A stretch of 64,000 nt of DNA from a virus, in the IMG/VR virus record IMGVR_UViG_3300050821_017219, positions 1 to 64,000 of that record; one strand, given 5' to 3'. Made by a program: the position numbers and the translations under genes. Below are positions 14,482 to 43,586 of the stretch, piece by piece (positions within the stretch are counted from its first letter, which is position 1; each line of letters opens with the position of its first letter). Below the pieces are notes generated by a model. That model was not told the DNA's origin and did no database searches. It saw only the letters and a program-made list of their open reading frames with translations.

Positions 14482-17121
14482 TTGAGTGCCAACGGCCCCC
14501 CCGGTAATCCCCAGCTCGATGTGCTCCGTGCTCGCGTAGCCATCGGCGGCATCGGCGGGGGTGCGTCCGGCCCTACCGGTGCGACGGGTCCGGCCGGTTC
14601 ACCAGGGGGAGCGACGGGCGCAACTGGTGCCCCCGGAGCAACAGGCGCAGGCGCAACCGGAGCAGTCGGGGCTACAGGTGCGATCGGCGCTACTGGCGCA
14701 GTCGGGGCAACTGGCGCTACCGGCTCTGGCGCTACCGGGGCAACCGGAGCAACAGGTTCCGCCCCTCTCTTTTCGATCACAAATCCAGCGTTTGCGGGAG
14801 GCGCCAGCGCCGCTGCCACACCGACGCAGAACGTCGCCGCTATCAATGCGACAATCGCGGCAGCAAATGCCGCGGGGGGCACGGTCTATGTCCCGAACGA
14901 TCCGGCCGGGGCATACCGCATCAACGCGCCGATCTCGATCCCTCATGACACGGTGATCGTCGGGGAAGCCTCGTCGATCGGTACGCCCAAAAGCGTATTG
15001 CAAGCGGCCGTTGCTATGCCGGCCATGCTGCAAGTTGAAACGCAGCAAAATCAAACCCTGCCGACCCCTGCGCAGATCCGCGCGATCACGCTCGACCAAA
15101 ATCTTCTCGCGATCTGGGGCATCGATCGCCGAAGTGACCTCTCGAGCCGATATAGCAGTGTGCAGTGTCGTAACGCGCCGCTCGATGGCTTCCACTCGAG
15201 CTCACATTCGGTGGCCGTCGCGATTTCGGCTATCGTTCCGGGCGGTGGCGCTGGCGCAGGACAGCTCACGCTCTCGCAACCGGATGTCAGCTACGCGGGC
15301 GACATCTCAAGTTCGGGTACGCACTACGCCATCAAGTTTGTGGTCGCTGGAGGGTACGGCGTCGGGCAATTCGTACTGTCGCAAGACGGGGGCGTAACCT
15401 TCGCTACGGCGCGGCAGACAGTCCAGGCCGTCTCCAATCTCATTGTGACACAGGCTGCTCAGTATACCCACGCGATGGGGTTGCAGGCAACCTTTGCCAA
15501 TATCGTATACGGTCTCAACTGGACTTATACATGGACGGCCACGGGTGGGCTTGAGCCCAACACGAGCAATACGACAATCAACGCGCTCGTGCGCTTCGAC
15601 GATTGCTCTGTCGTCAATCTCGGTGTGGCGTATTGCTCGGACGCCGGTACGCGCGCGATCTACAGCAATCTTTTGGCTCAGGCCTTCACGACTGGTGGGA
15701 CCGTCACCTCGACGCCAGGCTCGCAGCTCTTGGTCGGCACCGGGACGGCGTTTCTCACAGGCTCGCAACCGAATTTGGCGCCTCGACCCGGCGATACTAT
15801 CTGGCTGAATAACAGCCCGGCGGACCCTCGGATCGCCAACTTTCAGATCCTCGCCGTCATGGACGACTTCACGGTGGTCGTATCCGTGGGCGATGCCCCC
15901 AACTTGCCCGCCCTCGCGGGTGTGCACTTCGCGCTCGTCGTCGGAGCCGGCTGCTACGTCACCGATGGCGGCGACAACATCGGAGAGGCTTGGCACGACG
16001 GCTACATGGAGACGGTCGCCAATGGTTGGCGGCTAAGCGGCGTCTCGCCCATGAGCCTCTATAGCCCATTTCTCGAAGCCGACTCCGCCGGTATTGGCGT
16101 GGGGATTGGCGGCCAGATGAGCGCGGGTGCTCAAACTATCGTACAAGCGCCCTACATCAAACTATCAACGCAAGGCCGCCAGTATTACGTCCAGCAGGCT
16201 TCCCTCTGCGAAATCATCGACCCCGAGGGGCCGTTCGGGCCCGATGGGCTAGGGGGCTCGGGCTTCGCGCGCGTCACGTTCAACGGCCAGCCGTACGCCT
16301 ATAACTTCGTCCAGAATGACTTTCAACCCAAAGCCAATTTGGTTTTGCAGGCAAGCGTCGTCTCGGTCACTGTGCCCAATCAAGTCCTCGTCGGCCCTCC
16401 CCTCGATGTGTTCCAGGGGGGCGCCACGGCGTACACGGTGCTTGTCCCGAATGCGGATTACATCGGGACGGCCAACACGCCGCTTTTGCCCGCGCCGAGC
16501 GTGCCCGGACAGCTTTGGCTCATCGAAAATCAGTTGAACAGCGCTCACGTCTTCGAGTTCTTCGATAACGGGACATTCGGGGCATCTCACCTGAACCTGG
16601 CGTGTCAGTCGCTTTTTATGTTTCCGGGCGAGCGGATGCTACTCGTCGCCTCGGAGGTCGCCGGCTCTGTTGCCTCGTGGCAGATCATGGGGGACGTCCA
16701 GCGGAGCTACCGCGGCCAGAGCGGCGAGGGAAGCAAGTGCGGGCCGGGCTCGGGCGTGGCGATCGGCGTCGGAACGATCAACGTGCAGCTCTGGGACGTC
16801 GTGTTTGTTCCAACGAGAGGTTTTGCCGCAAAGCTCAACGTCAGCGTCAAGGACGCGGCATCGGCCTCGTTTGCGTGTTGGCTCGGCTGCACGGTGGGCG
16901 TCGACGGCACGGGGGCCATCATCGGGCAATTCGTACCGACGACGCAGGCGCAAGGCGCCTTCGGCAGCAACGCGGGGCTGCCCCCCGTCGGTTGGGCAAT
17001 GCAATTCGCTATCGTAGTAATCGGGGGCAGTAACCAAGTGGCTGCGCAGGTGACAACGACAGGCGGCATCACGGCAAAAGCGCTTTCCCAGAGCGAGCAG
17101 ATCGCTGCATACCCAATTTAG
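14482..17121 (+). CDS. Collagen-like fibre/spike protein 2 with pectate-lyase-like beta-helix
   Basis: DVLRARV N-motif; GAT repeats; NVAAINATIAAANAAGGTVYVP...AYRI..PISIP..TVIVGE beta-helix cap motif; TTG start. Confidence 0.75.
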   Translation: MSANGPPGNPQLDVLRARVAIGGIGGGASGPTGATGPAGSPGGATGATGAPGATGAGATGAVGATGAIGATGAVGATGATGSGATGATGATGSAPLFSITNPAFAGGASAAATPTQNVAAINATIAAANAAGGTVYVPNDPAGAYRINAPISIPHDTVIVGEASSIGTPKSVLQAAVAMPAMLQVETQQNQTLPTPAQIRAITLDQNLLAIWGIDRRSDLSSRYSSVQCRNAPLDGFHSSSHSVAVAISAIVPGGGAGAGQLTLSQPDVSYAGDISSSGTHYAIKFVVAGGYGVGQFVLSQDGGVTFATARQTVQAVSNLIVTQAAQYTHAMGLQATFANIVYGLNWTYTWTATGGLEPNTSNTTINALVRFDDCSVVNLGVAYCSDAGTRAIYSNLLAQAFTTGGTVTSTPGSQLLVGTGTAFLTGSQPNLAPRPGDTIWLNNSPADPRIANFQILAVMDDFTVVVSVGDAPNLPALAGVHFALVVGAGCYVTDGGDNIGEAWHDGYMETVANGWRLSGVSPMSLYSPFLEADSAGIGVGIGGQMSAGAQTIVQAPYIKLSTQGRQYYVQQASLCEIIDPEGPFGPDGLGGSGFARVTFNGQPYAYNFVQNDFQPKANLVLQASVVSVTVPNQVLVGPPLDVFQGGATAYTVLVPNADYIGTANTPLLPAPSVPGQLWLIENQLNSAHVFEFFDNGTFGASHLNLACQSLFMFPGERMLLVASEVAGSVASWQIMGDVQRSYRGQSGEGSKCGPGSGVAIGVGTINVQLWDVVFVPTRGFAAKLNVSVKDAASASFACWLGCTVGVDGTGAIIGQFVPTTQAQGAFGSNAGLPPVGWAMQFAIVVIGGSNQVAAQVTTTGGITAKALSQSEQIAAYPI

Positions 17122-17148
17122 CGTCTGAATTCCGAAAGCAAAATTCCA

Positions 17149-18042
17149 ATGGCAGTCGACCATCCCTTCGTTCGTCGTTCCCGCGTCGCCAACGTCGCTC
17201 TCACCGGCGGAAGTGGCGGCGGTGCCACCGGCGCTTCAGGTAGCAATGGAGCGACTGGCGCTACCGGCTCAAACGGAGCGACAGGTGCGACCGGCGCGGG
17301 GGTAACCGGCGCGACGGGCAGTGCTGGCGCTACAGGATCTCTCGGCGCAACCGGCGCGACCGGAAGTGGAGCAACAGGCGCTACCGGAAGCCAAGGCGCG
17401 ACGGGACCTGGCGCAGGGGCGACCGGGGCTACGGGAGCGACCGGACCGGCCGGCGTTGGCGCTACAGGTGCGACTGGAGCGGGCGTTACGGGAGCCACCG
17501 GAGCCGTAGGCGCAACTGGGTCGGCGGGGGTCGGAGCAACCGGTGCAACTGGCGCAGGAACGGTCGGTGCGACTGGCGCAACGGGCGCGGGCGGCGCAAC
17601 AGGCGCTGCTGGTGCAACGGGGGCGGGCGGGGCCACCGGAGCTACGGGGGCGACACCCGCCGCGACGCTCGTTCAGACCACAAGTGTTTCTAGTGGAAAT
17701 ACGGGGCTAACAACGACCGGCCAAACTCTCACTTCTGTAGGGATTACAATAGCGACTGGGCAGCGCGTCTTTATTTGGGCCTCTTGCTCATCGCAAATCA
17801 CTGCGGGCGTCACATCGACGGCTACCTACAAAATCACGCGAAATGGAACTCAACTTCAGGCGGCGGTGTTCCATAACCAGACCAATGCGGCTACGAGCAG
17901 CACTCCGGTATGTATGTTCGCTTTTGATACTGCGGGCGTAGCCGGTGTGCAGACCTACGCCTTTGTCGGAACGACGAGCGGTGTCAACGGTGACATCACC
18001 GCGATCGCACCGGAGATGATATTCTTCATCACTACTGTCTAA
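17149..18042 (+). CDS. Collagen-like fibre protein 3
   Basis: PFVRRSRV N-motif; roughly 145 aa of GAT repeats; beta-sandwich C-terminus. Confidence 0.8.
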
Positions 18043-18077
18043 TCGGCTCTAGAAGGTTTCAAGAAAGCAAATACAAA

Positions 18078-19820
18078 ATGGGTCGTTCAACGCTACTTGT
18101 CCGTCGATCTCGCATCAGCGTCGATCCCTCGCCGTCGGGTGGAGGCGGAGGGACGGGGGCCACCGGATCTCCCGGCGCGACCGGGGCCAACGGCGCTACG
18201 GGTGCGACCGGCGCCGGTGTCACGGGAGCGACGGGCAGCGCGGGGGCGACCGGTTCTGCGGGAGCCACGGGGGCTACGGGAGCCGGAGTGACCGGTGCAA
18301 CCGGCTCGCAAGGTGCGACCGGACCGGGCGGTGGTGCGACCGGCGCTACAGGCGCGACCGGAAGTAATGGTGCGACGGGCGCTACCGGAGCCGGTGTTAC
18401 TGGCGCTACCGGCGCCGCTGGAGCTACTGGCGCGGCGGGCGCTGGAGCAACCGGAGCGACGGGGGCAGGTACAGCGGGAGCTACGGGAGCAACTGGGGCA
18501 GGCGGGGGCGGTGCCCTCACGGCGTTCGGAGCGGACCTCGTTGGGTCGGCTGCGACAACGCAGTGGATCGCATCGATCAGCGGGCAAGGTGGTACTGGCG
18601 GGACCGTTCCCATCGGAGGGTCCGCCAATACGGTGATGCAGTTCCGGGCCGGCGCCGTTCAATCTTCGGCGGGGCTTTCGCAGGCACAGCAGACGAGTGA
18701 CATCCCGACGGTCGACCTCGTCTTCGGGTCGCAGCGAGGATTCGCGACTGCAACAGGAACCAACCGCACCGCGGGCAGCATCGTCGCTGCGATTCCAGCG
18801 GTCACCAACGCTGGTACGGCTGCAGGGGCCTTCCGTGTGACGGAATCAGGCGCTGGAGTCATCGCCATCGCGCCTGGAGGCTTCGGGCAAGCGCCAACGT
18901 CTGGCGCTGCTGCTGCCGCAATTTGGTTGAACCTCACTCGCGGTACAGAGTCCGGTACGAACTACTCCATCGCAGCAAACTCTATCAATACGACCGTAAA
19001 TGGAGTCTCTACCGTTCGTCTCGACGTCGCTGGTTTCGATCAGCTTTCCATGACGTCGGTTGGTGCGCAGTTCTTCCGCACCAACGGAACGGTCGCATTC
19101 GGCGGTGGGACCGGCGGAATTATCTCGATCGACAGCTCAGCGATCGTCCCACCGACGGCACTTCCGACGACTGCGGTGCTGGTTTACGCCAATACCGGCT
19201 CCCCAGGCAGCCTAGGGCTGATGGCGACGGGGATCCAGTTCAACAAGACGCTCGGGACGGTTACCGCAACGATCGGATCGGACGGACCCACGACGGATGT
19301 CATACCAAACGGCATCCTAGTGCAAGCGGCATCGGCCTTTGCTGCTGCAGTCACCAACACCACTGGTGGGTCGGTGATTATCGCTGCTGGGGCCGCCTCT
19401 GCGCTCTCCAACGGAACGCAGATCTCACTGTCCGGCGGGGTCACCGGTGGTGGTGTACCCACCAATCTCGGGACGGTTCAGTTCCGAACGTCGGGCGTCG
19501 GCGGCAACTTGTCGGACCCATCGACGCTGTCGGTACCGTTCGCGTGGATCACGGCGCCGTCGTTCTCCATCGCGTCGGGTGGAACGATTACCCTCTCGGG
19601 CGCGCAGGCGGCATCGCCGGTGCTGACGATGACTGGGACGACGGCCGGAACGACGATCGCGTTTCCGAACGTTCCTGGCTTCTGGCTAGTCGACTTCAGC
19701 ACCGTAACAGGTCCGCTCACCTTCACGAGCGGATCTGGAACGACGGCCGCGTTGACGGCAGTGGCGGGAGCCATCGTGACCGTCGTCACCATGGGTGGAA
19801 ACAGAATCCGCATCAAGTAA
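18078..19820 (+). CDS. Collagen-like fibre protein 4
   Basis: [11 protein letters not shown]-motif; GAT repeats; long Gly/Thr/Ala-rich beta C-terminal region. Confidence 0.8.
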
Positions 19821-26304: not shown

Positions 26305-27858
26305 ATGGCCGGAACACTCATCGTTCGTCGAGCTCGCGTCGTCACCAACGTCGGCTCGGGTAGCGGCAACGGCGCAACCGGCGCAACTGGACCGGGCGGA
26401 GGCGCGACTGGACCGACGGGGGCGACAGGTGCAACCGGGGCCGTCGGCGCATCAGGTGCCACGGGTGCTTTCGGTGTCACCGGCGCTACGGGGCCGACCG
26501 CACGCACGCCGCTTGGCGCAGTCAGATTCATCGATCCATCCAACTCATCTGGCCTGGCGTCAGACAGCAACAACGGCGCAACCAACGTAACGCCAATTCT
26601 GACGACAGCGCATCTCAATAACCTTCTGTTCTTCAAATCGCTGACGGCCAATACGACGATTACGTATATGAGCGACGATCTTAGCGGCGTTGGGTTGGAT
26701 TATTCAACGATGGCGTTGGGCAATTTCAACTTGACGTTTCAGATGACGCCGGTCGTTACGCATACGGGTGGAACGCTCAACGCCGGCACGGTCGCGATCA
26801 ATCCGTTGGCGGCGTCTGGCGGTCAACGCCAAGTCGTTCATACTTCCGACGTTGTGACGTTCAATCCGTTTGTCTTTACAGGATTGGGCGGAGCGTCGGC
26901 GCATCCACAACGACTCGTCGCGACGAGTGGAGGCGACGTCAATACTGGCGCGTGGATCGTCTCAGCAACAACCCCAGCTTCGCCGTCGATGTCTCGGTCA
27001 ATCACGCCTGGTGGAACCAACGGCAATCTAACGATTGGCGACACCTACAAGATTCAGCGTGGGGGGATCATCAACGTCACGCAAGGCCAACCTCCCACAC
27101 AAGACGCCGGGCCGTCTGGAGGTGGCGGTGGTCTAGTGTTCTTCAACGACGCCGCCTTTGGCCTAACGAGCTGGGGCATCGGAGGTATACAATACGCCCG
27201 ATGTAGCTTTGAGAATTCACTTGTCGTTGCTGCGGGTCTTACCGATTGCTTCGTCGGCGCTGGTATTATCGAGATTCTACCGATTGGATCTATCTCGATG
27301 ACAGCCGGTGTTCTTGTGACGACTATCTTCGATTTACTTCATTCGTCCATTAGTTTTGCTGACGATACGTACATCACCGGATCAGCCTTTATTCTTTCGG
27401 GCAACGTCTATGGTAGCGTAACGGCTCTGCCAGGTAGTGGTAACGGGATTCAAATCCAAGATATGACGAACCCTACCGGCGCGCTCATCGTTTTGACCGC
27501 CATCCCGTTTGCGAATCAGACGGGGTCGCCGTCGAACCCGCTCATCTGGGGAAACGGTAACGTCGGACCGGGTATCACGATCGGACCGGGAGCGTGTATC
27601 ACGGTGGCTGACGAGGTTGGGGTTGTACCGAGCGTCACCGGAACCGGCGGAGACTTCGCATTCATCGCCGAAAATAGCGGACCGCTTGTGACGGTAGCGC
27701 GCGCTTGGAACAACGCGACGGGCGCCTACACGGAAGCGGGGGGCGTTGCGACCAGAACGACGACCTGGGCGCATTTCGCTGCTAGTATCTCCCCCGGTGG
27801 CGGTTTTCTCTTTCAAGCGCATAACGTAGCGACAGCAGCGTCAATCATTGCGGTCTGA
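26305..27858 (+). CDS. Collagen-like fibre protein 5
   Basis: TLIVRRARV N-motif; GAT repeats; FIDPSN...ASDSNNG..P spike-like motif. Confidence 0.75.
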   Translation: MAGTLIVRRARVVTNVGSGSGNGATGATGPGGGATGPTGATGATGAVGASGATGAFGVTGATGPTARTPLGAVRFIDPSNSSGLASDSNNGATNVTPILTTAHLNNLLFFKSLTANTTITYMSDDLSGVGLDYSTMALGNFNLTFQMTPVVTHTGGTLNAGTVAINPLAASGGQRQVVHTSDVVTFNPFVFTGLGGASAHPQRLVATSGGDVNTGAWIVSATTPASPSMSRSITPGGTNGNLTIGDTYKIQRGGIINVTQGQPPTQDAGPSGGGGGLVFFNDAAFGLTSWGIGGIQYARCSFENSLVVAAGLTDCFVGAGIIEILPIGSISMTAGVLVTTIFDLLHSSISFADDTYITGSAFILSGNVYGSVTALPGSGNGIQIQDMTNPTGALIVLTAIPFANQTGSPSNPLIWGNGNVGPGITIGPGACITVADEVGVVPSVTGTGGDFAFIAENSGPLVTVARAWNNATGAYTEAGGVATRTTTWAHFAASISPGGGFLFQAHNVATAASIIAV

Positions 27859-30524: not shown

Positions 30525-31066
30525 GTTTAACCGTGCCGTCCGTTGGCGGCCTTGCCGGTCTTTCTCATCCCGAACGACCGATTGACCCCCGAGGGGCGCG
30601 CGAGGCCGAGCCCAGCTCGTCAGCCTGATCGGCGGACTCAACGAGCATTCTGGCAAGCTCGCGCGCGTCGCGAGATGAAAGAAGCGTCTCTATGGCGGTG
30701 TGATCCGACTGAGAATCGACGAGAAGGCGTACGACGTTCCCCGGTGACGGCCCGACGAGTGATCTAACCACCACTTCAAACATCGTCTTCATTTGCGGCT
30801 CACCACCGGCGCTTCGTCGACGGAGACGCGCGCATCAGCATCCACCATTGGGATTTCGACGACGCTCACGATGCTGCCGACGCCGTTCATCCACTGCTTC
30901 GCGTTGCTCGATGCACCGGCCGACGTGGCAGCGTAGACGATTACTTTGCGTTCGATCGTCACCTCCCACCGTCTAACCTTCGATGCTGCTTCCGTCGTCG
31001 TTTCGTCGGTCATTTCGACGTCTCCCTTCGGTCTCCCACTTGCTGAGTCACAACCGTCACGGTAGT

Positions 31067-31109
31067 GTCTGCTTGTCGTTTCGTGCTGCCCGACTTAGTC
31101 TAAGCAGAC
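31067..31109. promoter_or_regulatory. Inverted GTCTGCTT/AAGCAGAC pair in the divergent control region
   Basis: 31067-31074 and 31102-31109 lie between leftward (31013) and rightward (31142) genes. Confidence 0.4.
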
Positions 31110-31326
31110 GCGGCAGTAACGCAAGCGAAAAGGCGGCTAGAATGAAAAACGTATCGACTGAAAAAGTCGACGAGTTGTTTCGTGCGGTCGAAGCGCATCT
31201 CGCGCAAGCGCCGGATTTGGCGGATCGGCTAGAGGCGGAGCTTCAGCATCATCTCGCCCGCGCGCGAGAAATCGAGACGGCGCTCGTTCATATACGACCG
31301 ATTGCCCTTGCGCATCGAAGCCGTCG

Positions 31327-31704
31327 ATGACGAAGCGCATCCTCGTCGTCGGGGGTCGCTCCTTCAAAGACTGGCGTCTCCTGTTTCGCATCCTCGGCGA
31401 GATCAAGGCAGCGCTCGACGAGAAGCCCGTCATCGTCACCTGGAACGCCATCGGCGAGAAGACCGACGGCGCCGTTAGGCTGGCGCGGAAGTTCGCGCGT
31501 GAGAACGACCTGCTTTGGGTCGAGAATCTCTTCGCGGAGCTACAGCTTGTCGTCGCCTTCCCGGGGGCCGGCACAGAGCGAGCGCTGCAGCATGCATGGC
31601 GCAAGCGCATCCCGGCGCTGAAGGTCTTCGCCGACGGCAACGTCATCGTCGTCGGAAGTAGCTGCAAACAATTCTTTGCGACACGGAAGGCGGCACCACG
31701 ATGA
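31327..31704 (+). CDS. SLOG/YspA-like (DUF2493) protein 1
   Basis: ILVVGGRSF; VVAFPGAGT. Confidence 0.7.
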   Translation: MTKRILVVGGRSFKDWRLLFRILGEIKAALDEKPVIVTWNAIGEKTDGAVRLARKFARENDLLWVENLFAELQLVVAFPGAGTERALQHAWRKRIPALKVFADGNVIVVGSSCKQFFATRKAAPR

Positions 31705-32123
31705 GGGTTCTGGTCTGCGGCGGTCGCGACTATCGCGGCATCGAATGCGTCAACGCGACGCTCGATCGCCTCCACGCCGTCTACGGCATCGAGGTGGTCA
31801 TCCATAGCGGCGTCGGTAGTCTTACTGATTTTTACGCCGGAGGATGGGCGACTCATCACGGCGTTGGCCAGCATGTTTTTCGCGCAGATTTCAGAAGCTA
31901 CGGCAAGTCTGCCGGCCCGCGCCGCAACGCCGAGATGCTCCGCAAAGGGAAGCCTGACCTGGTCGTGGTCTTCCCGGGGAGATGCGGAACGCGCGACATG
32001 TTTCACAAGTCGATCCGCGTCGGTGTCGCTGTCGTCGAAATAATGTCGTCGCGCGTCGTAAAAATTCATGGCGAGGCCGTTCGATACGCGCGCGCCTTCG
32101 CTGAAGAAAAGGCGACGCCATGA
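31701..32123 (+). CDS. SLOG/YspA-like (DUF2493) protein 2
   Basis: VLVCGGRDY; GKSAGPRRNAEML; VVFPGRCGT.DM. Confidence 0.8.
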   Translation: MRVLVCGGRDYRGIECVNATLDRLHAVYGIEVVIHSGVGSLTDFYAGGWATHHGVGQHVFRADFRSYGKSAGPRRNAEMLRKGKPDLVVVFPGRCGTRDMFHKSIRVGVAVVEIMSSRVVKIHGEAVRYARAFAEEKATP

Positions 32124-32254
32124 CGCTGCCGATTTTTTGGATGATTCTGCTGCTCGGCGCCTTCGCTATCGTTTTCTGCGGTCTGCTGATCTGGCTGTCA
32201 TTCGTCGAGACGAAGTTTTTAGACGGCTCCAACAAAAACGGCGACGGCGAATGA
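32120..32254 (+). CDS. 44-aa membrane peptide (not in track)
   Basis: MTLPIFWMILLLGAFAIVFCGLLIWLSF...; ATGA-coupled on both sides. Confidence 0.55.
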   Translation: MTLPIFWMILLLGAFAIVFCGLLIWLSFVETKFLDGSNKNGDGE

Positions 32255-33966
32255 CCGCCGCCAACCCGAAACGGCCGTCACCCCTGGCGGCTGCGGCAGC
32301 CATCGTTGACGACGACAGCAACGCCAACGGCGGCGACTTCGACGGCATCAGCGGCATCGTCGCTAAAATTCAACAACAGAATCAATCGTCGACGACTCCG
32401 ACTGCTTCTGCTTCGACACCGCCACCAACAACGCCGCCGAAGCAACGCCAGCAGCCACCGGCGAACACCAAGCGCTTCGCGAAGACCGACACCGGCAACG
32501 CCGAGCGACTCGCCTACTACTTCGGGCAGCGCTTCCGCTACGTCGAGGAGTGGGACGAATTTCTGGTCTGGCGATCGACCCACTGGCAACGCGACCCCCA
32601 GCACGTTCGGGTGGAGGCGTTGACGAAGGAGGTCATCGCCAAAATTCGCGACGAAGCGCGTGGCTTCGGATCAACGACAGCAGAAGGTCGCGCGCTCTAC
32701 GCATGGAGTTTAGAAAGTCAGAAGCGGGCGAAGCGTCAGGCGATGGCCGCGCTCTCCCGAAGCGAGCTGGGGGTAGCCGTCTCCCACGAGAAGTTGGACG
32801 CCAACGCGTGGCTGCTGAACGTCAAGAACGGCGTTTTAGATCTACGCAGCGGTGAACTGTCGCCGCATCGACCGACCGACTTGATCACACGCGTCGCCGA
32901 CGTCAGATTCGATCGCAAAGCTAAAGCCGAAAATTTCAAACGATTTCTGTCGCGTGTGTTGCCGGATGAAGAGACGCGTCTATTTTTGCAGCGCTTCATC
33001 GGCTACAGCCTCACGGGGGATGTGGGGGAGCGCGTTTTCGTCGTTTGCTACGGCGGTGGCCGCAACGGCAAGTCGGTGTTGCTGCGCATCATCCAAGCGA
33101 TGCTCGGCAAATATTCGACGACCTGCGCGCCTGGTCTTTTGATGGCGCGCAAGGATGAAGCTCACCCCGCCGACGTCGCCGACTTATTTGGCGCGAGGTT
33201 GGCGGTGGCTTCTGAAGTCAAAAAAGGCCGAACGTTCGACGAAGAGAAGGTCAAGCGCATCACCGGCAACGACATGCTCAAGGCGCGGCGGATGCGCGAG
33301 AATTTCTGGGAGTTCTTGCCGACGCACAAGATCATCTTGGCGACCAACCACAAGCCGAGGGTGGCGGATGCGACCGACAGTTTTTGGGACCGCATCGCGC
33401 TCATCCCGTTCGACGTGCGCATCGACGATGGTGAAGTCGATCGAAGTCTCGCCGAGCGTCTGATCAAGGAGGAGCTCTCCGGCATCCTTACGTGGGCGAT
33501 GGAGGGCTGCTTGGCGTGGCAGAAGGAGGGGCTGCGCATCCCGAAGGCCATCGTCGACGCGACGCGGGAGTATCGCGCTGCCGAGGACGTCGTAGGGGGC
33601 TTCGTGGGCGAACGCTGCTTGTTCAGCACCATTGAGTTTGAGTCGATAGCGACGCTCATGGCGGCGGCGCAGAAGTGGTGCGCGACCAACGAACGCTTTC
33701 CCTTCAGCAAAAAAGACCTGGGCGAGTGGTTGAAGCAGCACAAGTGCATCGAGGGCCGAGATAAAGCCTGCAAAGTGCGTGGATGGAAGGGAATTCGCCT
33801 ACGAACGCTCTCCGAAATGGCTCCAGACGTTCAAGACGTTCTAGACTCAAATTTACCCTTATCGGTAGGATCGGGAGTTACAGATCCCAATACGCGCGCC
33901 ATAGGTAAAACAGCGTCTGAAACGGCTAGAACGTCTAACGCTAAAAAAGGCGATAAAATCAACTAG
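32251..33966 (+). CDS. D5/P4-family SF3 helicase (D5_N, ATPase, C-terminal wHTH)
   Basis: TDTGNAERL; LNVKNGVLDL; GGGRNGKS Walker A; VKRITGND; ATNHKP. Confidence 0.9.
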   Translation: MTAANPKRPSPLAAAAAIVDDDSNANGGDFDGISGIVAKIQQQNQSSTTPTASASTPPPTTPPKQRQQPPANTKRFAKTDTGNAERLAYYFGQRFRYVEEWDEFLVWRSTHWQRDPQHVRVEALTKEVIAKIRDEARGFGSTTAEGRALYAWSLESQKRAKRQAMAALSRSELGVAVSHEKLDANAWLLNVKNGVLDLRSGELSPHRPTDLITRVADVRFDRKAKAENFKRFLSRVLPDEETRLFLQRFIGYSLTGDVGERVFVVCYGGGRNGKSVLLRIIQAMLGKYSTTCAPGLLMARKDEAHPADVADLFGARLAVASEVKKGRTFDEEKVKRITGNDMLKARRMRENFWEFLPTHKIILATNHKPRVADATDSFWDRIALIPFDVRIDDGEVDRSLAERLIKEELSGILTWAMEGCLAWQKEGLRIPKAIVDATREYRAAEDVVGGFVGERCLFSTIEFESIATLMAAAQKWCATNERFPFSKKDLGEWLKQHKCIEGRDKACKVRGWKGIRLRTLSEMAPDVQDVLDSNLPLSVGSGVTDPNTRAIGKTASETARTSNAKKGDKIN

Positions 33967-33980
33967 TTGCAGAAACGTCT
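33825..33980. repeat. AT-richer tract with AGACGTT direct and inverted repeats; candidate replication origin
   Basis: agacgtt at 33825 and 33834; aacgtct at 33930 and 33974; perfect 11-bp IR 33834-33844/33926-33936. Confidence 0.4.
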
Positions 33981-33982
33981 AC

Positions 33983-34396
33983 GTGACCGATCTCACAAAC
34001 AGCCACGGTTTTATAGCTCAGCCGGAAAGCCGCCAGATGAAGACCGCCAAGCACTACGCCGACCTTCTCGTCAACAACGTCACAAAAACGGTGGCGGCGC
34101 CGACCATCGAAGACTGGCGCGCCGAAGCCGAAAAAATCTTCGCCTTCATTCTGTTCCAACCGCAGCATCGGCCCAACATTCGCGTCAACGAGCAGATCAT
34201 CGCTACGACGGTCATCTACATCGACAGCGTCGGCAACAAGTGGGGCGAGATCGAGACGGCAGAAGCGATTCGTCGCGCGAAGGCGTTAGGGTTGTCACTC
34301 GTCGAGATCAACCCGCGCGCGTCGCCACCGGTCTGCAAGGCGATCAAGTGGCCCTACAGAAAAAAGCCGACCGAACCACCGCCGGAGATCGTATGA
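33983..34396 (+). CDS. Protein carrying only the N-terminal domain of translation initiation factor IF3
   Basis: NIRVNEQI...V.YID..G...G.I...EAI..A...GL.LVEINP.ASPPVCK matches IF3-N; no IF3-C domain. Confidence 0.8.
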   Translation: MTDLTNSHGFIAQPESRQMKTAKHYADLLVNNVTKTVAAPTIEDWRAEAEKIFAFILFQPQHRPNIRVNEQIIATTVIYIDSVGNKWGEIETAEAIRRAKALGLSLVEINPRASPPVCKAIKWPYRKKPTEPPPEIV

Positions 34397-34704
34397 GCAA
34401 CGTCAACGGCAAGACGAATGGCATCGCCAAAAAATCCGAAGCTGATGCCGCTTCCGACGACGACGTCGATACGCTTCCGACCATCGAAGCCGTCGTCGAA
34501 GCCTTCCTCGCCGACTCGACGTCGCCCGATCGTGCCTCCTTCACGTCGACGGCGGACATCATGGCGGCGGCGCGCGCGTGGTGCGACGACCGCGGCGAGT
34601 TTCGCTTCGGCCGGCGCTTGCTCGCGAAGCAGCTGCAGCAGCGTGGGTGCAAGCCGCAGCGGACGAACACACAGCGGGGATGGAGAGGAGTGAGGTTGCG
34701 ATGA
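34393..34704 (+). CDS. Stand-alone winged-helix paralog of the D5 helicase C-terminal domain
   Basis: IMAAARAWC...F....L...L....RGWRGVRLR versus LMAAAQKWC...F...L...L...RGWKGIRLR. Confidence 0.7.
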   Translation: MSNVNGKTNGIAKKSEADAASDDDVDTLPTIEAVVEAFLADSTSPDRASFTSTADIMAAARAWCDDRGEFRFGRRLLAKQLQQRGCKPQRTNTQRGWRGVRLR

Positions 34705-35626
34705 CGAAGGAATGGTTTGAAGGCGTCACGCGAGAATTCGGCATGCCGGGCCGCGCGGAGGAACGCATCCGCCGATGCCCTAGAACGCCGGGTTGGTACA
34801 TCGCCGAGCTCGAGTTCGCTTGCTGCGGCGTCGGTGGGGCCGCCCACCTGATCCCTATCGGCGCGTGGATCTACGTCGCCGACGATGACGGATACGTTTG
34901 CTGCGAGAATCATCCGCCTTACGGCGGGTTTCCAGTACGTCGATGAACTACGTCGTCAAAGACGAGCACAACCGCTACCACCGCGAGGTGCACGAGCTGC
35001 GCGGGAAGCGTTGGCATCGCCGCTTCGAGTGGGTCACGTCGCGGCTCGAAGCGACGGTCTTCACGACTTACACGGCGGCGAAGTTTCGGCGCGACAGCCT
35101 CTACACGACGGCGGCGATTTTCGTCGTCGAGCTGACGTGAATAGAAGCGCGGCGGGTGACGTCTAACGAGGCGGAGGCTGAGTCTTCGATGAAAACAGAG
35201 CGCAACTACGAGACCGAGAAGGCTGCGCATGAAAAGACACGTCTGGAGCGCAACGACGCCCAGAAGCGCGCGCAAAGCCTGATCGGAACCGTCAGAGGCC
35301 TCGAAGCGAAGGTGAAGCGTCTCGAAGAGCAGAACTTGCGGCAGGAAAAATTGATCGCTGGTCTCGAAAGCGGAGAGAGACGTGAGTTTCAGCAGCGATG
35401 CCGCCTTCTAGATCAACTTCGACAACTAGTGACGGAGGCAGACGACCGATGACTGAGCCGCTCCGGTGTGATTTCTGCAGGCGCACGGATGGTGGGCCAT
35501 TCGCTGAAAAGACGAGGCGCGGGCGTATTTTGAAGCAGGCTGACTTCCCGTGGATCATCTGCAAGCGTTGCTGCGACGCGGCATCGAGGTCAAGTGGGGA
35601 CCGACGTACACATTCAAGGTGGAGCC

Positions 35627-36196
35627 ATGAACGACGAAGACAAGAAGCTGATCGAAGAGGCGGAGCGACTCGACGCGGAAGCGACGCCGGGGTGGGCTAG
35701 CTATCCAGTGGGGTTCTGCGGGTACGCCTACGAAACCGTTTGGGCGAAAAACGTAGACGACGAACCTCTGTTTGAATCGTACAGCCAACCCGACACGCGC
35801 TTCGTCGTCGCCGCTCGTACGCTGCTGCCTCAGCTCGCGAAGCGTCTGCGCGAAGCGTTGAACGTTCCCGACGTTCCGCCGGAGCCGCCGAAGCTGCCGG
35901 AGCCGCTCGTCGACGGCTACTACTGGGTCCGCCTCCCTAGCGACGCGCCGATCATCGCCGAGCGCGAAACGTATGGCGGACGCGCTCACTGGTTCCATTT
36001 CGGTGCCGATGGTTCTGACAACGTCGAACCGCTGTTCGGCCCACTGCAGCCACCCGCCGTCACAAACACGTCGCCGATTGTTCCATGGCCTGTCGATCTA
36101 CCTCCGCGTTTCAATGGCGGAGTTCAATGCGATGCCCTCGAAGGCCCGTGCGCATGCGGCGCGTGGCACTCTAAGGTCACAAACGTCACGAAATAA
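35627..36196 (+). CDS. Ead/Ea22-like phage protein
   Basis: ATPGW...DTRFVVAARTLLPQL. Confidence 0.5.
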   Translation: MNDEDKKLIEEAERLDAEATPGWASYPVGFCGYAYETVWAKNVDDEPLFESYSQPDTRFVVAARTLLPQLAKRLREALNVPDVPPEPPKLPEPLVDGYYWVRLPSDAPIIAERETYGGRAHWFHFGADGSDNVEPLFGPLQPPAVTNTSPIVPWPVDLPPRFNGGVQCDALEGPCACGAWHSKVTNVTK

Positions 36197-36282
36197 CAGC
36201 CAGATTTGACGGAGCGACCAAAATGTCTCATCATCGACTCAACGATCGGCGACGCGTCGTGGCGGATGTCGGTCTCGCGCTT

Positions 36283-36325
36283 CCGTCGCCCCCCTCGCCT
36301 AGCCGCCAGGGGGGCGACGGTTTCT
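36283..36325 (+). terminator. Possible intrinsic terminator
   Basis: Perfect 13-bp stem ccgtcgcccccct/aggggggcgacgg followed by TTTCT. Confidence 0.4.
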
Positions 36326-37883
36326 CAGGCGCAGACGTCAAGATGCCGTTGACTCCGCCAGCGGCAATCTACGTCACGACGATGCGTCTCGTGGGCGGCG
36401 AAGGCGGCGTCTGGGTTTGGTTCAACGTCGAGGTGCCATTGTGATGCGCCACGGCTACTTCCTTCCCGGGCGCGGTCTCTTCGGCGACATCGACCTCGCT
36501 GTTGATGCGCAAACGTTCTGGTCCCTAAGCCCAGCGGGGGACTTCCTCTGGAAGCACCTCGGCCACTACGACGGCGCTTCGATATGGATCACCAATGACG
36601 GCCGAACCACCATCCGTTTGTGCCTCCAAGACTTCTTCAGCGAGAAGTTCCGCGTCGAGGTTCGCGACTGGAGTGGTATCAGTTGGGAGCGCGCGCGATG
36701 AAACACTCGCCACTCGTCGGCGACTCCGTCAGCATCACTCGGGGCGTCTCCCTCGTCTGCCCATTCTGCGGCGGTACCGTCGACATGGGCGACCTCTCCT
36801 GTGGTGGCGTTGGCGCGATCCATACGTTCCCCACCTGCGACACGTTCGATCGTCTCACCGTCGACGAGTTTGCCTACGCCTGCCGCATCGCCATCGAAGC
36901 GACGGTGAAGGCGGAAAAAGCATCGTGATCGATCTTCATGAAGGCGTCGCCGAAATCTTCGCTGCGGCGCAACAAGACGACGGCGTCGACCACGGCGACC
37001 TTCGGTTCGACTCAGACACCGCGCGGAGCCTCACCTACGAAGCCGCTTTCATTGCGCAGGCGCGCCTCGCCGAAGGTGTCACGCGATGGCGTTGCGCTAC
37101 CTGCGGCGAGGAAGTAGAACAACGACCCGGCGTTCGTGTGGCGTTTCACATGGGAAACCTACGCGACTCGAACTGTGGCCGACGAGAAGCGCCTAGAGAC
37201 TTTCAAGAGACGCAAAATCGTCTTGCTGTCGCGCCCGCTTTGACTTACCGTAACTCCTCACGCTGACGCCGCCGCTTCGTGCCGCCGCGTCGGTAGCTAC
37301 CGCGAGACTTGAAGTCGACGAAAATTCAATCGTCGAAAACCACGACTGAAAGGCGTTGCCGATGGCGTCGAAGTTTCGACAGATTTCTGTGTCGTCTGTT
37401 CCCGACGATAATGATGGCGTCATCGATAGCGTCTACGCGCTCGATGAAGCCGGCGTCGTCTGGCTGTTCAACAACACCGACGAGCGGTGGGAGGCGCTCT
37501 CGAAGCAGCGGTATGTCGCTGGCGCGTCGAACGACGATGCCGGCGAAGACGAGGGGGAGTGATGCCACCGACAAAAGAAGAAGTTGCTGACGTTCAGGAA
37601 ACTTGGTTCGGTTGGTTGCTGAAGGATGGTGGTTGATGCCATCTTACAACGACTGGCCGACGAACGACGAAGATTGGGCCTTCCGTCAACAGCTTCGTCT
37701 TCGCGACGCGCGATGGCAGCGGTTGGAGCCGACCTACAACGAGCTCGAAGCGGCGCTCAACAAGGCCACCGCCGAAATCATCGCGCTGAAGGCCGCGCAC
37801 AAAGCCGCGATGGAGACGGCGCTAAAGGCGCAACAGGAATACTACGACGGGCAAGCAATCCACCAAGCCTCGTGGGGCGGCTG

Positions 37884-39676: not shown

Positions 39677-39940
39677 ATGTCTGAAAACCACGACAACGAT
39701 TCGTCTACGCCGAAGAAGCTTCACGGCTTCGCAGCTTGGTCGAAAGAGCGTCAACGTGAGGCTGCCTCGAAGGGCGGTAAGACCGCTCACGCTCTGGGTA
39801 CAGCTCACAAATTCTCTGGCGACGAAGCGAGAGAAGCCGGCCGACGCGGCGGGTTGGCCATCGCAGCGAAGAAGCGGCGCATGAAAGAAGAAGCAGAATT
39901 GAAGACATTCGTCGAAATCGAAGAAACGACGCCGCGATGA
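39677..39940 (+). CDS. KGG-repeat general stress protein
   Basis: GFAAWSKERQREAASKGG; AHKFSGDEAREAGRRGG. Confidence 0.85.
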   Translation: MSENHDNDSSTPKKLHGFAAWSKERQREAASKGGKTAHALGTAHKFSGDEAREAGRRGGLAIAAKKRRMKEEAELKTFVEIEETTPR

Positions 39941-40404
39941 TGCCGATGATGCCGCGAGTATTTCTCGTCACGCCTTACGCCGAAGTCATCGCAGACAAAT
40001 ACAAGACAGATGGATACAACTGGCTTCATCGGCCAAACGTCATCTTCGCGCAGCGTTGCATGGCTGATTGTCTTCGTCGCGAGGAAGCCGTCTTCGCTTG
40101 CCACTTGCTCTACACGCAACCCGGCGTCTTAGACGACGCCAAAACCGACGAAAGGCATCTCGGTCTAACCGCCGGTCGTCGGTTCCTCGCGGTCTGCGAC
40201 CGCGCCGTCTGCTACGTCGATCGCGGCATCTCGAGCGGAATGCGCGGCGACTTGGAAGAGGCGTTGAGACTGAAGACGCCGATCAACTTTCGGCGGCTCG
40301 ACGGAGCGATGGTCGGTGGAACGTTTCTTCATACGTATTCGGTTCCGCATTGGCCGTGCGGTTTGTGTCTAGACGTGGCGTTGTCGAAAGTCTCGGCGAG
40401 ATGA
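39937..40404 (+). CDS. Nucleoside deoxyribosyltransferase-like phage protein
   Basis: TPY; HLLYTQ.GVLDD...ER..G; CD...Y.DRGISSGM. Confidence 0.65.
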   Translation: MMPMMPRVFLVTPYAEVIADKYKTDGYNWLHRPNVIFAQRCMADCLRREEAVFACHLLYTQPGVLDDAKTDERHLGLTAGRRFLAVCDRAVCYVDRGISSGMRGDLEEALRLKTPINFRRLDGAMVGGTFLHTYSVPHWPCGLCLDVALSKVSAR

Positions 40405-40964: not shown

Positions 40965-43586
40965 GTGGCTAGTAAAGCGAGTCGACAACGAATTGTATCG
41001 TCGTGGTTACCGCAAATGAACGCCCTTCCAACCGGCGTCGCCTACGACGCTCGCGCGCATCTCGCCGAATGCGATAGGTGTCCGCTCGGTGGGAATGTTG
41101 TCGTTCCCCCCGACCCCCCGCGTCGGGCGTTGAAGCTCATCGTAATTGGCGAAGGCCCAGGCCGTTTAGAAGAACGATACGGAAGAGCCTTCGTCGGTCC
41201 GAGCGGCAAGATGCTCGATGCGGCGCTGCTCGAAGCCGGCGGCCATCGCCAAAACAGCTACGTCACCAACGTCATGCTTTGCCGCGTCGACGACGACAAG
41301 CAGATGGATGCAGCCATCGCCTGTTGCGCGCCACGTCTCGCCAAAGAATTGTCTGAATTGCCATCAGACATACCGATTCTATCGCTTGGCGCTGGCGCCT
41401 CTCGGATGACCATCGGCAAGTCGGGCATCCAAAAGTATCGCGGCTTCGTCTGGAAGGCGCCAGAGATAAAACAACAACAGATAAGAAATGCTGAAAGGCT
41501 TTACGAAAAACGCATCGAAAAAAAGCGAAGCCTCAAAGACGTCGAGAAGGCGTTGAACAGCTGGACGATTCTGAAGGCGAGACAGCAGATTCAAGGCCGA
41601 ACCGTTATTCCGACAGTACATCCGGCCTACTTGCTTAGGGGTGCAGACGGGTGGTATCCGATCTTCCGCGTGGACGTCAAGCGCGCCATCGCCTTGTCGC
41701 TGAATCCTCATACGATTCTCGAAGATGAAGGCGCGTTCGTCAAGACGACGTCGCCGAAGGAGGCAGCAAAACTACTCCGAGGCTTCTCGCAAACAGTCTT
41801 GGTCGACATCGAGACCGACGCCCCCGACGCCATGCGAGCCGGCATCACCTGCGTTGGCGTCGCCGACGTCGGCGATCCGACCAAGATTGTCGTGATGGAT
41901 CGCCGCAGCGAAAATCATCCGTGGCCTCGTGGCTTCATCAAAGTGTTGAAGCGATTCTTGCGCCGCCGAACCGTCGTCGGCCACAACATCAAAAACTTCG
42001 ACGAGCCGGTATTGAACCGCTACGGCATCTTTCTCGGCAGCGTCGAGGATACACTAGTGGCGCATCGAAGTTACGCGAGTCATTTGCCGCAGTCGCTGGC
42101 GCACGTAGCTTCGGTTTATTGCACGAGCGCGCCGTGGAAGTTGAAATTCAAGACGTCGGAAGAGAAAGGAGCGGTCGCTGGGTTTGGCGTCAAGGCAGAG
42201 GACCTCGCCATGTACAACGCCGCTGACTGTAGGCTCAACGCCTTCGCTTGGTTGCGGATGCAACCCGACTTGAAGCGAGAGATGAGCGTCTACCGCGACG
42301 ACACGGCGATGGCGGGGCTGTTCAGCCAGATGCAGCGGACCGGATTGCTTGTCGACGTCGAGAAGCAGCGTCAGCTCTCCAAGAAGTTGAAGCATCGCGC
42401 CGCCGCTTTGGTAGGTGAGATGCGCCAACTATTGCGCCGCCGCCAATTCAGCCCCGGTAAAACGGCCGACATCCGCAAGGCGTTGTACGGTCAGCTGAAG
42501 GCACCGCTTTGGCTCGCCCCGCCAACCCCCACCGGCCTTCCATCGACCGCCGCCATCGTCTTGGAGGCCCTAAAGGAGAGCGACACGCGCGCCGGCAAGC
42601 TCGCCGACTTGATCATCCGCTGGCGCTCCGCCAATGACAGCCGCAGCGAATACTTGGACGTGTATGTTCACCCTGATGGCCGCGTCAAACCAAGTTGGGG
42701 GCAAGTCGAAACTGGGCGGCCCCGCACGCGTGGGCCGAACATCCTCAACATCCCCCGCATCGCTTTCTGCTCGGGTTGCGGCGCGAAGCTGCTCGACGGC
42801 GTCATCCACAAAGACACCTGCAAAAAACGAGACGTACCGCAACCGGAGGAGATGCTCCGCGACATCTACGTTTGCGCGCCGGGGTGTAGCTTTGTTTACT
42901 ATGATATTTCTCAGGCGGAGATGCGCCTAGCGGCCTATCTGTCTGATGACGAAAACTTCATCGCGTCGTGCGCGAAGGATATCCATACGGAGAACGCATG
43001 CGTGTTGTTCCCCGATGGCGCCGACTTGATCAGAAGTGATCCGCAGGGTCGAGGCAAGAAGTTCCGTGAGATCGCAAAAAGCTGCGGTTTCGCAGTCAGC
43101 TACCTCGCGGAGGCGCCTAAGATTTTCGCTACGCTCCGAGGAAAAGGTTTCGACGTGTCGATGGATGACGTCGAGACGATGCTCGACAACCTTCGCTCGT
43201 CCTACCGGCGCTACTACGCCTACGTCGAAGGCAACGTCGAGTTTTGCCGCAAGCATGGGTTTCTCAGAACGCCATTCGCCGGTCGGATCAGGTGGCTTGG
43301 TTATTTCCCCCGACCTACGCAGGTGGCCAACTTTCCGATTCAGTCGGGCGTCGCCGACATCGTCAACCGACGGCTCTTGGAGATGGAGAAGAGACGCACT
43401 AAAAACGCTCGGTTGGTCGTCTACCACTACGATGCTGCGATCTACGAGACGCCAGCTGCGGAGGTCGAGACGATGAAAGGTCTCATCAAGGAATTGTGGG
43501 AGGAACCGGTGGTCGTTCCGACGAACGGGCGCAGCTTCGTACTACCGATTGAGCTCAAAGATGGGAGTAGGTTGAGTGACTTCTGA
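40965..43586 (+). CDS. polA: Family A DNA polymerase with N-terminal family-4 uracil-DNA-glycosylase domain and 3'-5' exonuclease
   Basis: CDRCPL, IGEGPG..E...G.AFVGPSG, HPAYLLR (UDG4); DIET, GHNIKNFD (exo); YDISQAEMR, R..AK...F...Y, NFPIQS (pol). Confidence 0.92.
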   Translation: MASKASRQRIVSSWLPQMNALPTGVAYDARAHLAECDRCPLGGNVVVPPDPPRRALKLIVIGEGPGRLEERYGRAFVGPSGKMLDAALLEAGGHRQNSYVTNVMLCRVDDDKQMDAAIACCAPRLAKELSELPSDIPILSLGAGASRMTIGKSGIQKYRGFVWKAPEIKQQQIRNAERLYEKRIEKKRSLKDVEKALNSWTILKARQQIQGRTVIPTVHPAYLLRGADGWYPIFRVDVKRAIALSLNPHTILEDEGAFVKTTSPKEAAKLLRGFSQTVLVDIETDAPDAMRAGITCVGVADVGDPTKIVVMDRRSENHPWPRGFIKVLKRFLRRRTVVGHNIKNFDEPVLNRYGIFLGSVEDTLVAHRSYASHLPQSLAHVASVYCTSAPWKLKFKTSEEKGAVAGFGVKAEDLAMYNAADCRLNAFAWLRMQPDLKREMSVYRDDTAMAGLFSQMQRTGLLVDVEKQRQLSKKLKHRAAALVGEMRQLLRRRQFSPGKTADIRKALYGQLKAPLWLAPPTPTGLPSTAAIVLEALKESDTRAGKLADLIIRWRSANDSRSEYLDVYVHPDGRVKPSWGQVETGRPRTRGPNILNIPRIAFCSGCGAKLLDGVIHKDTCKKRDVPQPEEMLRDIYVCAPGCSFVYYDISQAEMRLAAYLSDDENFIASCAKDIHTENACVLFPDGADLIRSDPQGRGKKFREIAKSCGFAVSYLAEAPKIFATLRGKGFDVSMDDVETMLDNLRSSYRRYYAYVEGNVEFCRKHGFLRTPFAGRIRWLGYFPRPTQVANFPIQSGVADIVNRRLLEMEKRRTKNARLVVYHYDAAIYETPAAEVETMKGLIKELWEEPVVVPTNGRSFVLPIELKDGSRLSDF

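Follow-up and report, generated by a model that had tools for sequence, protein, structure and literature searches.

The ORF at 33983-34396 (+ strand; ORF list) of this phage DNA carries a genuine, intact N-terminal domain of translation initiation factor 3 (IF3_N). The IF3 linker and C-domain are absent, so the product, P0001, is not an IF3 and is unable to serve as an initiation factor. IF3_N-only proteins were also found in metagenomic data, and moderate evidence from their sequences points to an undescribed family. We tentatively propose that P0001 may retain the N-domain contacts with host initiation and may interfere with it. Recruitment of the domain to a replication or nucleotide-metabolism module was judged about equally likely.

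The IMG/VR record is 78,382 bp long, has direct terminal repeats and is complete according to CheckV; the window, the whole stretch of DNA analysed, is its first 64 kb. No tRNA gene, tmRNA gene or Rfam family was found in the whole genome, and no other recognised translation gene was found in it. The family searches that were run showed no terminase, portal or major capsid protein in the window. Several large ORFs at 14482-19820 and 26305-27858 matched tail-fibre PHROGs via short N-terminal collagen-like segments only. The ORF at 59732-62035 (767 aa) gave a weak LAGLIDADG homing-endonuclease match at the threshold (22.7 bits), and an intein may be indicated.

The start of the IF3_N gene is more likely the ATG at 34037 (119 aa) than the GTG at 33983 (137 aa). 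GC3 was 0.61 in the 18 codons between the two (33983-34036) versus 0.80 downstream. A GGAAAG motif lies 8-13 nt 5' of the ATG and none such lies 5' of the GTG; elsewhere in the block, genes are preceded at 7-13 nt by motifs of the GGAG or GGAA type. In the public gene call, too, the protein has 119 aa and starts at this ATG. Residues are numbered here on P0001 (119 aa), and 18 is added for the 137-aa reading. With this start, the leader in front of the domain is about 49 aa long; the initial annotation had correctly described it as unrelated to IF3, with a length of 60 aa that does not hold. GC1/GC2/GC3 of the gene were 0.55/0.42/0.77, a normal coding signature for this phage genome. The features discussed are listed in Table 1.

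Table 1. Positions of the features, given in the window unless another sequence is named.
Feature	Position	Strand	Basis
Two adjacent YspA/SLOG-family proteins	31327-32123		
D5_N + DUF5906 (SF3) helicase, P4/D5 'primase-helicase' family	32251..33966	+	Pfam, PHROG
AGACGTT/AACGTCT heptamer cluster and 11-nt perfect inverted repeat	33825..33980	.	Sequence counts
IF3_N-only gene, 119 aa (P0001)	34037..34396	+	ORF list, public gene call, GC3, GGAAAG motif
Leader, aa 1-49, two predicted helices	34037..34183	+	AlphaFold2 model
IF3 N-terminal domain, aa 50-103	34184..34345	+	Pfam PF05198, AlphaFold2, Foldseek
Tail KWPYRKKPTEPPPEIV	34346..34393	+	Alignments; replaces IF3 linker helix (DYGKxKYE...)
A_AAA_AAG heptamer, -1 phase	34360..34366	+	30 nt 5' of stop; sequence, phase check
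103-aa ORF, free paralogue of helicase C-terminal domain	34393..34704	+	BLASTP, PHROG
DUF7768 protein (nucleoside 2-deoxyribosyltransferase-like)	39937..40404	+	Pfam PF24963 73 bits, PHROG 355
PolA with N-terminal UDG-like domain	40965-43586		
IF3_N insert in nucleoside hydrolase	L141:793-1836; Myxococcota genome G244, contig C1, 191091-191225		

Pfam IF3_N (PF05198) matched the protein with an E of 1.5e-14 and 54.4 bits, twice the gathering cut-off of 26.9. The match covered aa 68-121 of the 137-aa reading and model positions 1-54 of 70, consistent with the IF3-N match placed at about 34170-34350 in the initial annotation. A six-frame search of the genome gave IF3_N at the same place with 55.4 bits. 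The HMMER search with the second Pfam model, IF3_C (PF00707), gave no match in the protein and, at E<=10, none in the six frames of the complete genome (78,382 bp), in agreement with the missing C-domain noted earlier; the same six-frame search found IF3_C in control genomes. The protein ends 16 aa past the N-domain. The NCBIfam model TIGR00168 (infC) scored 45 bits, under its equivalog cut-off of 60, and PHROG 9787 ('translation initiation factor') matched weakly. A phmmer search against PDB sequences returned IF3 chains only, in the N-domain region only.

The structure of P0001 was modelled with AlphaFold2 from a 62-sequence alignment, with a mean pLDDT of 86.6; a single-sequence model with a pLDDT of 49.7 was discarded. 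The pLDDT was about 98 over residues 50-103, which formed a predicted four-stranded beta-grasp of the order b-b-a-b-b (strands 58-62, 68-73, 87-92 and 99-103; helix 74-83). Foldseek matched the model to 5lmn_X, 6o6d, 1tif and 9a5a_B, with E values of 4e-6 to 7e-6 and an rmsd of 0.4-1.1 A over 54-58 residues.

The identity between the phage domain and the N-domains of full-length IF3 was 40-55%, and we take the domain to be originally of bacterial infC descent. Nearly all conserved positions were kept when it was compared with 50 full-length IF3 sequences from the match list. The invariants N16, I19, V24, I27, D28, G31, G35, A42, A46, L51, L53-E55, P58 and P62-P63-V64-C65 were all present. The departures from the same 50 sequences were R20I, R25I, L26Y, L34W, D52S, I67A and D69K. 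[quoted passage not shown] P0001 has Ile, Lys and Lys, respectively, in these places. A Lys at 33 or 66 is frequent in true IF3, and at the Arg66 position it is the residue found most often among full-length IF3. About 30% of 103 canonical IF3 sequences have Leu or Phe at position 25, so the phage Ile falls inside the natural variation of full-length IF3 and is suggestive, not decisive. Asp occupies this position in the nearest tree neighbours P0005 and P0146 and is absent from the 103 canonical sequences.

The leader contains one predicted helix at aa 4-15 (pLDDT about 62-66) and a second at aa 24-39 (pLDDT about 90), the latter with the hydrophobic segment IFAFILF. No Pfam, NCBIfam or PHROG family covers the leader, and no credible homologue of it was found among 1.84 billion protein representatives. 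Matches to P0002 (six tandem 59-aa repeats) and P0085 (Calx-beta repeats) were rejected as repeat-driven. R20I and R25I could, as an idea from model and alignment, form a hydrophobic patch on the sheet face of Ile55 and Ile60 under the leader helix; if the helix covers this face, the canonical tRNA face would be occluded. At the other end, the Lys-rich helical IF3 linker, which starts D-Y-G-K-x-K-Y, is absent and KWPYRKKPTEPPPEIV stands in its place. This tail is basic and aromatic at first and then proline-rich. It was unstructured in the model, with no helix predicted beyond aa 103. In the alignment to E. coli IF3 (8jsg_A), D69-Y70-G71-K72 fell opposite K-W-P-Y, as the initial annotation had it.

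Relatives of P0001 were sought in proteins and in contigs. No close homologue or orthologue was present in either of the two large protein collections. Among the best 150 phmmer matches, about 40 had IF3_N followed by a tail unlike the IF3 linker. The partners confirmed by Pfam were a ClpX-type zinc finger (P0005, P0055), DUF7768 (P0025), PP2C (P0038) and a short-chain dehydrogenase, adh_short (P0091). Long contigs encode IF3_N-only proteins: 79.5 kb for P0055, 80.0 kb for P0111 and up to 48.6 kb for the P0032 cluster. The scans of viral contigs with P0001, P0005, P0055, P0002, P0111, alignment A2 and the PPVCKxIKWP pattern returned nothing or full-length IF3 only, and every virus-borne IF3 homologue with retrieved DNA was full-length. 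A look-up in ESM-Atlas gave, as a lead only, an all-viral IF3_N cluster of 84 aa with a score of 0.86. Several candidates were rejected: the seven matches of a metagenome pattern scan were all chance, and the examined tblastn matches in GenBank phage records were all full-length IF3, several of them in 'UNVERIFIED' records.

The scan of genome contigs with P0111 found nothing. With alignment A3 it found 80 loci, of which 72 were full-length IF3, two were cut by a contig end and six failed a motif check. In Myxococcota, about 24 of 301 genomes had at least two IF3_N matches. Of the extra or weaker matches that were translated, six proved to be full-length IF3 paralogues and a seventh an insert in a nucleoside hydrolase. 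This IF3_N lies at aa 237-281 of a 348-aa homologue of inosine-uridine nucleoside hydrolase (IU_nuc_hydro), with Pfam scores of 45 and 39 bits; no prior description of the architecture was encountered. The literature was also searched for stand-alone IF3_N proteins of phages or other sources; no paper was found, and this absence is not proof.

A maximum-likelihood tree was calculated from 59 domain columns. The N-only proteins clustered on it, with 23 label changes versus a mean of 36.6 in shuffles, and none of 2000 shuffles was as low. P0001 fell in a clade of 12 (support 0.69), ten of which were labelled N-only, the others being P0032 (unclassified) and P0071 (a fragment). An inner clade of five (P0001, P0005, P0146, P0046 and P0054) had a support of 0.81, and its residues at the R25 position were I, D, D, M and R, respectively. 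The nearest neighbour of P0001 was the zinc-finger protein P0005, which ends in ...KWPRPR. The clustering of the IF3_N-only proteins speaks for persistence as a family. Since only 59 columns were available and kin share labels, the tree is moderate evidence; at that strength it argues for N-only lineages that are old and separately evolving, not fresh truncations.

The initial annotation had placed the gene in a replication operon, and the Pfam and PHROG matches of its neighbours agreed with this. The co-directional block runs from two YspA/SLOG genes through the D5-type helicase, the IF3_N gene, the 103-aa ORF and small ORFs without a family to a Sak4-like ATPase, the DUF7768 protein, PolA, a Dda-like helicase and a Dam-type methyltransferase; a PD-(D/E)XK exonuclease lies upstream on the opposite strand. 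The D5-type helicase matched Pfam D5_N with 106 bits and DUF5906 with 42 bits, and PHROG 2478 and 1156 with E about 1e-115; no primase domain (AEP or TOPRIM) was recognisable by Pfam. Its longest ORF opens at 32068, but the first residue of its relatives P0278 and P0279, and of the public gene call, is the Met that matches 32251, probably the start. The YspA/SLOG pair, the DUF7768 protein and the UDG-like PolA suggest nucleotide or base processing, possibly for DNA modification or counter-defence.

On the + strand at 31000-36500, a consensus scan placed a single promoter-like site at 36206 and a single terminator-like site at 31154, with neither kind between about 31.2 and 36.2 kb. This is weak evidence that the IF3_N block may be one transcription unit. 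Of the 14 copies of the heptamer AGACGTT/AACGTCT in the window, four lie within 156 nt that run from the 3' end of the helicase gene into the spacer ahead of the IF3_N gene, the last overlapping the GTG at 33983. The arms of the inverted repeat are at 33834-33844 and 33926-33936. The cluster may represent iterons of an origin, or an operator.

The ATG of the 103-aa ORF overlaps the stop of the IF3_N gene (ATGA), and the ORF has its own GGAG 7-10 nt upstream. Its product shared 36% identity over 74 aa with helicase aa 506-579 (BLASTP, E 4e-12) and was matched by PHROG 6088 and 1156, at the primase C-end. This paralogue may regulate the helicase or compete with it at a DNA site. A complex prediction for P0001 and the 103-aa protein scored 0.00, which is no evidence either way.

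Helicases 73-82% identical to that of the phage occur on other contigs, including P0278 (82%) on a contig of 75.9 kb. No orthologue of the IF3_N gene was detected although these relatives exist, so the gene looks accessory and not a fixed part of the replication module.

It is debated what the N-domain of IF3 does: the C-domain alone sustains growth, and the N-domain tunes fidelity via the tRNA elbow. In the mechanism that we tentatively propose, P0001 would be an accessory early protein in which an IF3 N-domain is flanked by a new leader of two helices and by a short tail, basic and rich in proline. It would still bind the native partners of the N-domain, namely the 30S platform near uS11, the initiator-tRNA elbow or both. 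By competing with the N-domain of host IF3 during infection, it could alter the fidelity or kinetics of initiation. The analysis established the identity and fold of the domain, the lack of IF3_C, the operon setting and a place in a clade of IF3_N-only proteins; contact with the ribosome or tRNA, the part played by the leader and any change in translation are what we infer.

The reported properties of IF3 bear on this mechanism in several ways. Anchoring to the 30S, anti-association of the subunits and proofreading at the P site are tasks of the C-domain and linker (PMC9723500, PMC5037330). The N-domain first contacts the platform close to uS11 and later the elbow of the tRNA; residues 63-70 are listed by Hussain et al. 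among the 16S rRNA binders (PMC5037330). The isolated N-domain of E. coli IF3 was reported not to bind 30S (PMC7145577); therefore the leader would have to add the affinity that the free N-domain lacks. The proposed mechanism is favoured by the high identity to true IF3 N-domains, with near-complete invariants and Lys at position 66, by a tail that is basic and aromatic like the start of the linker, and by the normal coding signature of the gene within a co-directional block that appears uninterrupted. It is weakened because R20 and R25 are both Ile, D52, I67 and D69 are replaced and neighbours carry Asp at R25, and because the fusion partners elsewhere are non-translation domains, the phage has no tRNA or other translation gene and the gene is accessory.

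The initial annotation had offered a choice between a decoy or modulator of host ribosomes and an exapted protein. Its N-only basis stood. A simple 30S decoy is disfavoured by three points: the isolated N-domain is reported not to bind 30S; R20 and R25 are changed to Ile, with Asp at the R25 position in the two nearest relatives; and the IF3_N-only proteins form their own clades and have non-translation fusions. The idea of an effect on leaderless mRNA found no support in any sequence analysis run.

It is also possible, rather than probable, that P0001 is an exapted beta-grasp adaptor for protein or nucleic acid, working in the replication or nucleotide module and off the ribosome and tRNA. 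Candidate partners would be the helicase, its free C-terminal-domain paralogue, the iteron-like cluster and the DUF7768/SLOG enzymes. The position of the gene between the helicase and the ATGA-coupled paralogue, adjoining the cluster, is consistent with such a role. Two further points agree with it: the nearest relatives have Asp in place of R25, and the surface arginines R20 and R25 have become Ile in P0001; judging from model and alignment, these Ile residues may pack on the hydrophobic leader helix. Elsewhere IF3_N recurs, C-terminal or inserted, with zf-C4_ClpX, DUF7768, PP2C, adh_short and IU_nuc_hydro, and beta-grasp domains are known as recruited adaptors (PMC1949818). The phage DUF7768 protein, 5.5 kb downstream of the IF3_N gene, is 41% identical to the N-domain of the DUF7768-IF3_N fusion P0025 (E 2e-22). 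However, more than 7000 DUF7768 matches included this fusion only once, in a protein encoded on a 5.7-kb contig. Nor is the linkage to the helicase conserved, as no IF3_N gene stands beside the more distant helicase relatives in IMG/VR (38-40% identity), and the identity to true IF3 N-domains exceeds what retention of the fold would need.

The proposal of interference with initiation can be extended to the relatives, in a form that we regard as possible rather than probable. The IF3_N-only proteins may be an unrecognised family of phages and mobile elements that aims the IF3 N-domain at the initiation machinery (30S platform or tRNA elbow), alone or with a helical leader, a zinc finger or an enzyme domain. 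The phage copy would then relax or redirect the IF3-dependent control of start sites.

A functionless remnant of a recent host infC capture, open by chance and drifting, is improbable. Several family-conserved residues are indeed replaced, and no orthologue was detected despite the close helicase relatives. Against this, the frame is intact with normal GC1/GC2/GC3, the model of the fold has very high confidence, the protein has gained a new tail and a structured leader, and P0001 groups with IF3_N-only proteins and not with full-length IF3, as an old, maintained lineage would.

The last alternative concerns the A_AAA_AAG heptamer near the end of the gene. The -1 frame from it is open to 34704, into the next gene, so a -1 slip there would give a fused reading of 223 aa, and a homopolymer error in the assembly could have hidden the same product. 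It would join IF3_N to a winged-helix-like domain in an IF3-like layout of N-domain, flexible linker and C-domain, but with a C-terminal domain of helicase type. At its start, the downstream ORF has about 30 residues of low complexity that resemble a linker. The codons of the heptamer are unusual for the phage: AGA makes up 6% of its Arg codons, and R-K-K written as AGA-AAA-AAG is expected at about 1.5%. However, no stimulatory structure was predicted past the heptamer (fold z -0.14), the nearest hairpin being 14 nt downstream. The heptamer is not enriched in the window (7 found versus 5.4 expected), and another in-phase copy lies in mid-polymerase gene. In sequencing data aligned to the DNA, one identical contig of 220 nt covered 34799-35018 and nothing crossed the junction of the two genes; the survey of sequencing runs found no RNA run, and one soil DNA run shared 5% of words. 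In dnaX-type and phage tail-chaperone G/GT cassettes, an in-phase X_XXY_YYZ heptamer and an open -1 ORF2 are likewise found, but these have a stimulatory element, namely a stable structure 5-9 nt downstream, an SD-like sequence upstream or both, and an ORF2 without its own start; no such structure was predicted at the phage site. The GGAG and overlapping ATG of the downstream ORF suffice for separate translation. A fusion product is very improbable.

A natural protein limited to the N-domain, kept by a phage and with similar relatives, would be a ready-made probe of what the isolated N-domain can do. If it acts on initiation, it would be a new kind of phage takeover device, in which a domain mimics an initiation factor. 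Otherwise it would show a basal beta-grasp, the class to which the IF3 N-domain belongs (PMC1949818), recruited to replication and nucleotide-metabolism contexts, including fusions to nucleoside-processing enzymes.

P0001 was compared with three groups of known or related proteins. With bacterial IF3 (InfC; 1tif, 6o6d, 5lmn, 8jsg) it shares the b-b-a-b-b fold and the invariant core, including the PPVC(K/R) motif, but it lacks the linker helix and C-domain and has the additional 49-aa helical leader. Full-length IF3 genes are known in large and jumbo phages (PMC7824862). These proteins (BFVD A0A8S5RZ17; IMG/VR loci L002-L009 and L027-L046) are virus-borne infC homologues like P0001; they are complete N- and C-domain proteins of 170-200 aa, whereas P0001 is N-only and comes from a 78-kb genome. 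The metagenomic IF3_N-only proteins P0005, P0146, P0046, P0054, P0107, P0094, P0028, P0109, P0041 and P0032 have the same plan of an IF3_N with a short non-IF3 tail and often an unrelated N-terminal extension. All ten fall in the clade of P0001 on the domain tree. They differ from P0001 in detail: P0005 has a ClpX-type zinc finger as leader, P0028 lacks a leader, and P0041 and P0146 carry a helix at the C terminus. Their identity to P0001 is at most about 50%.
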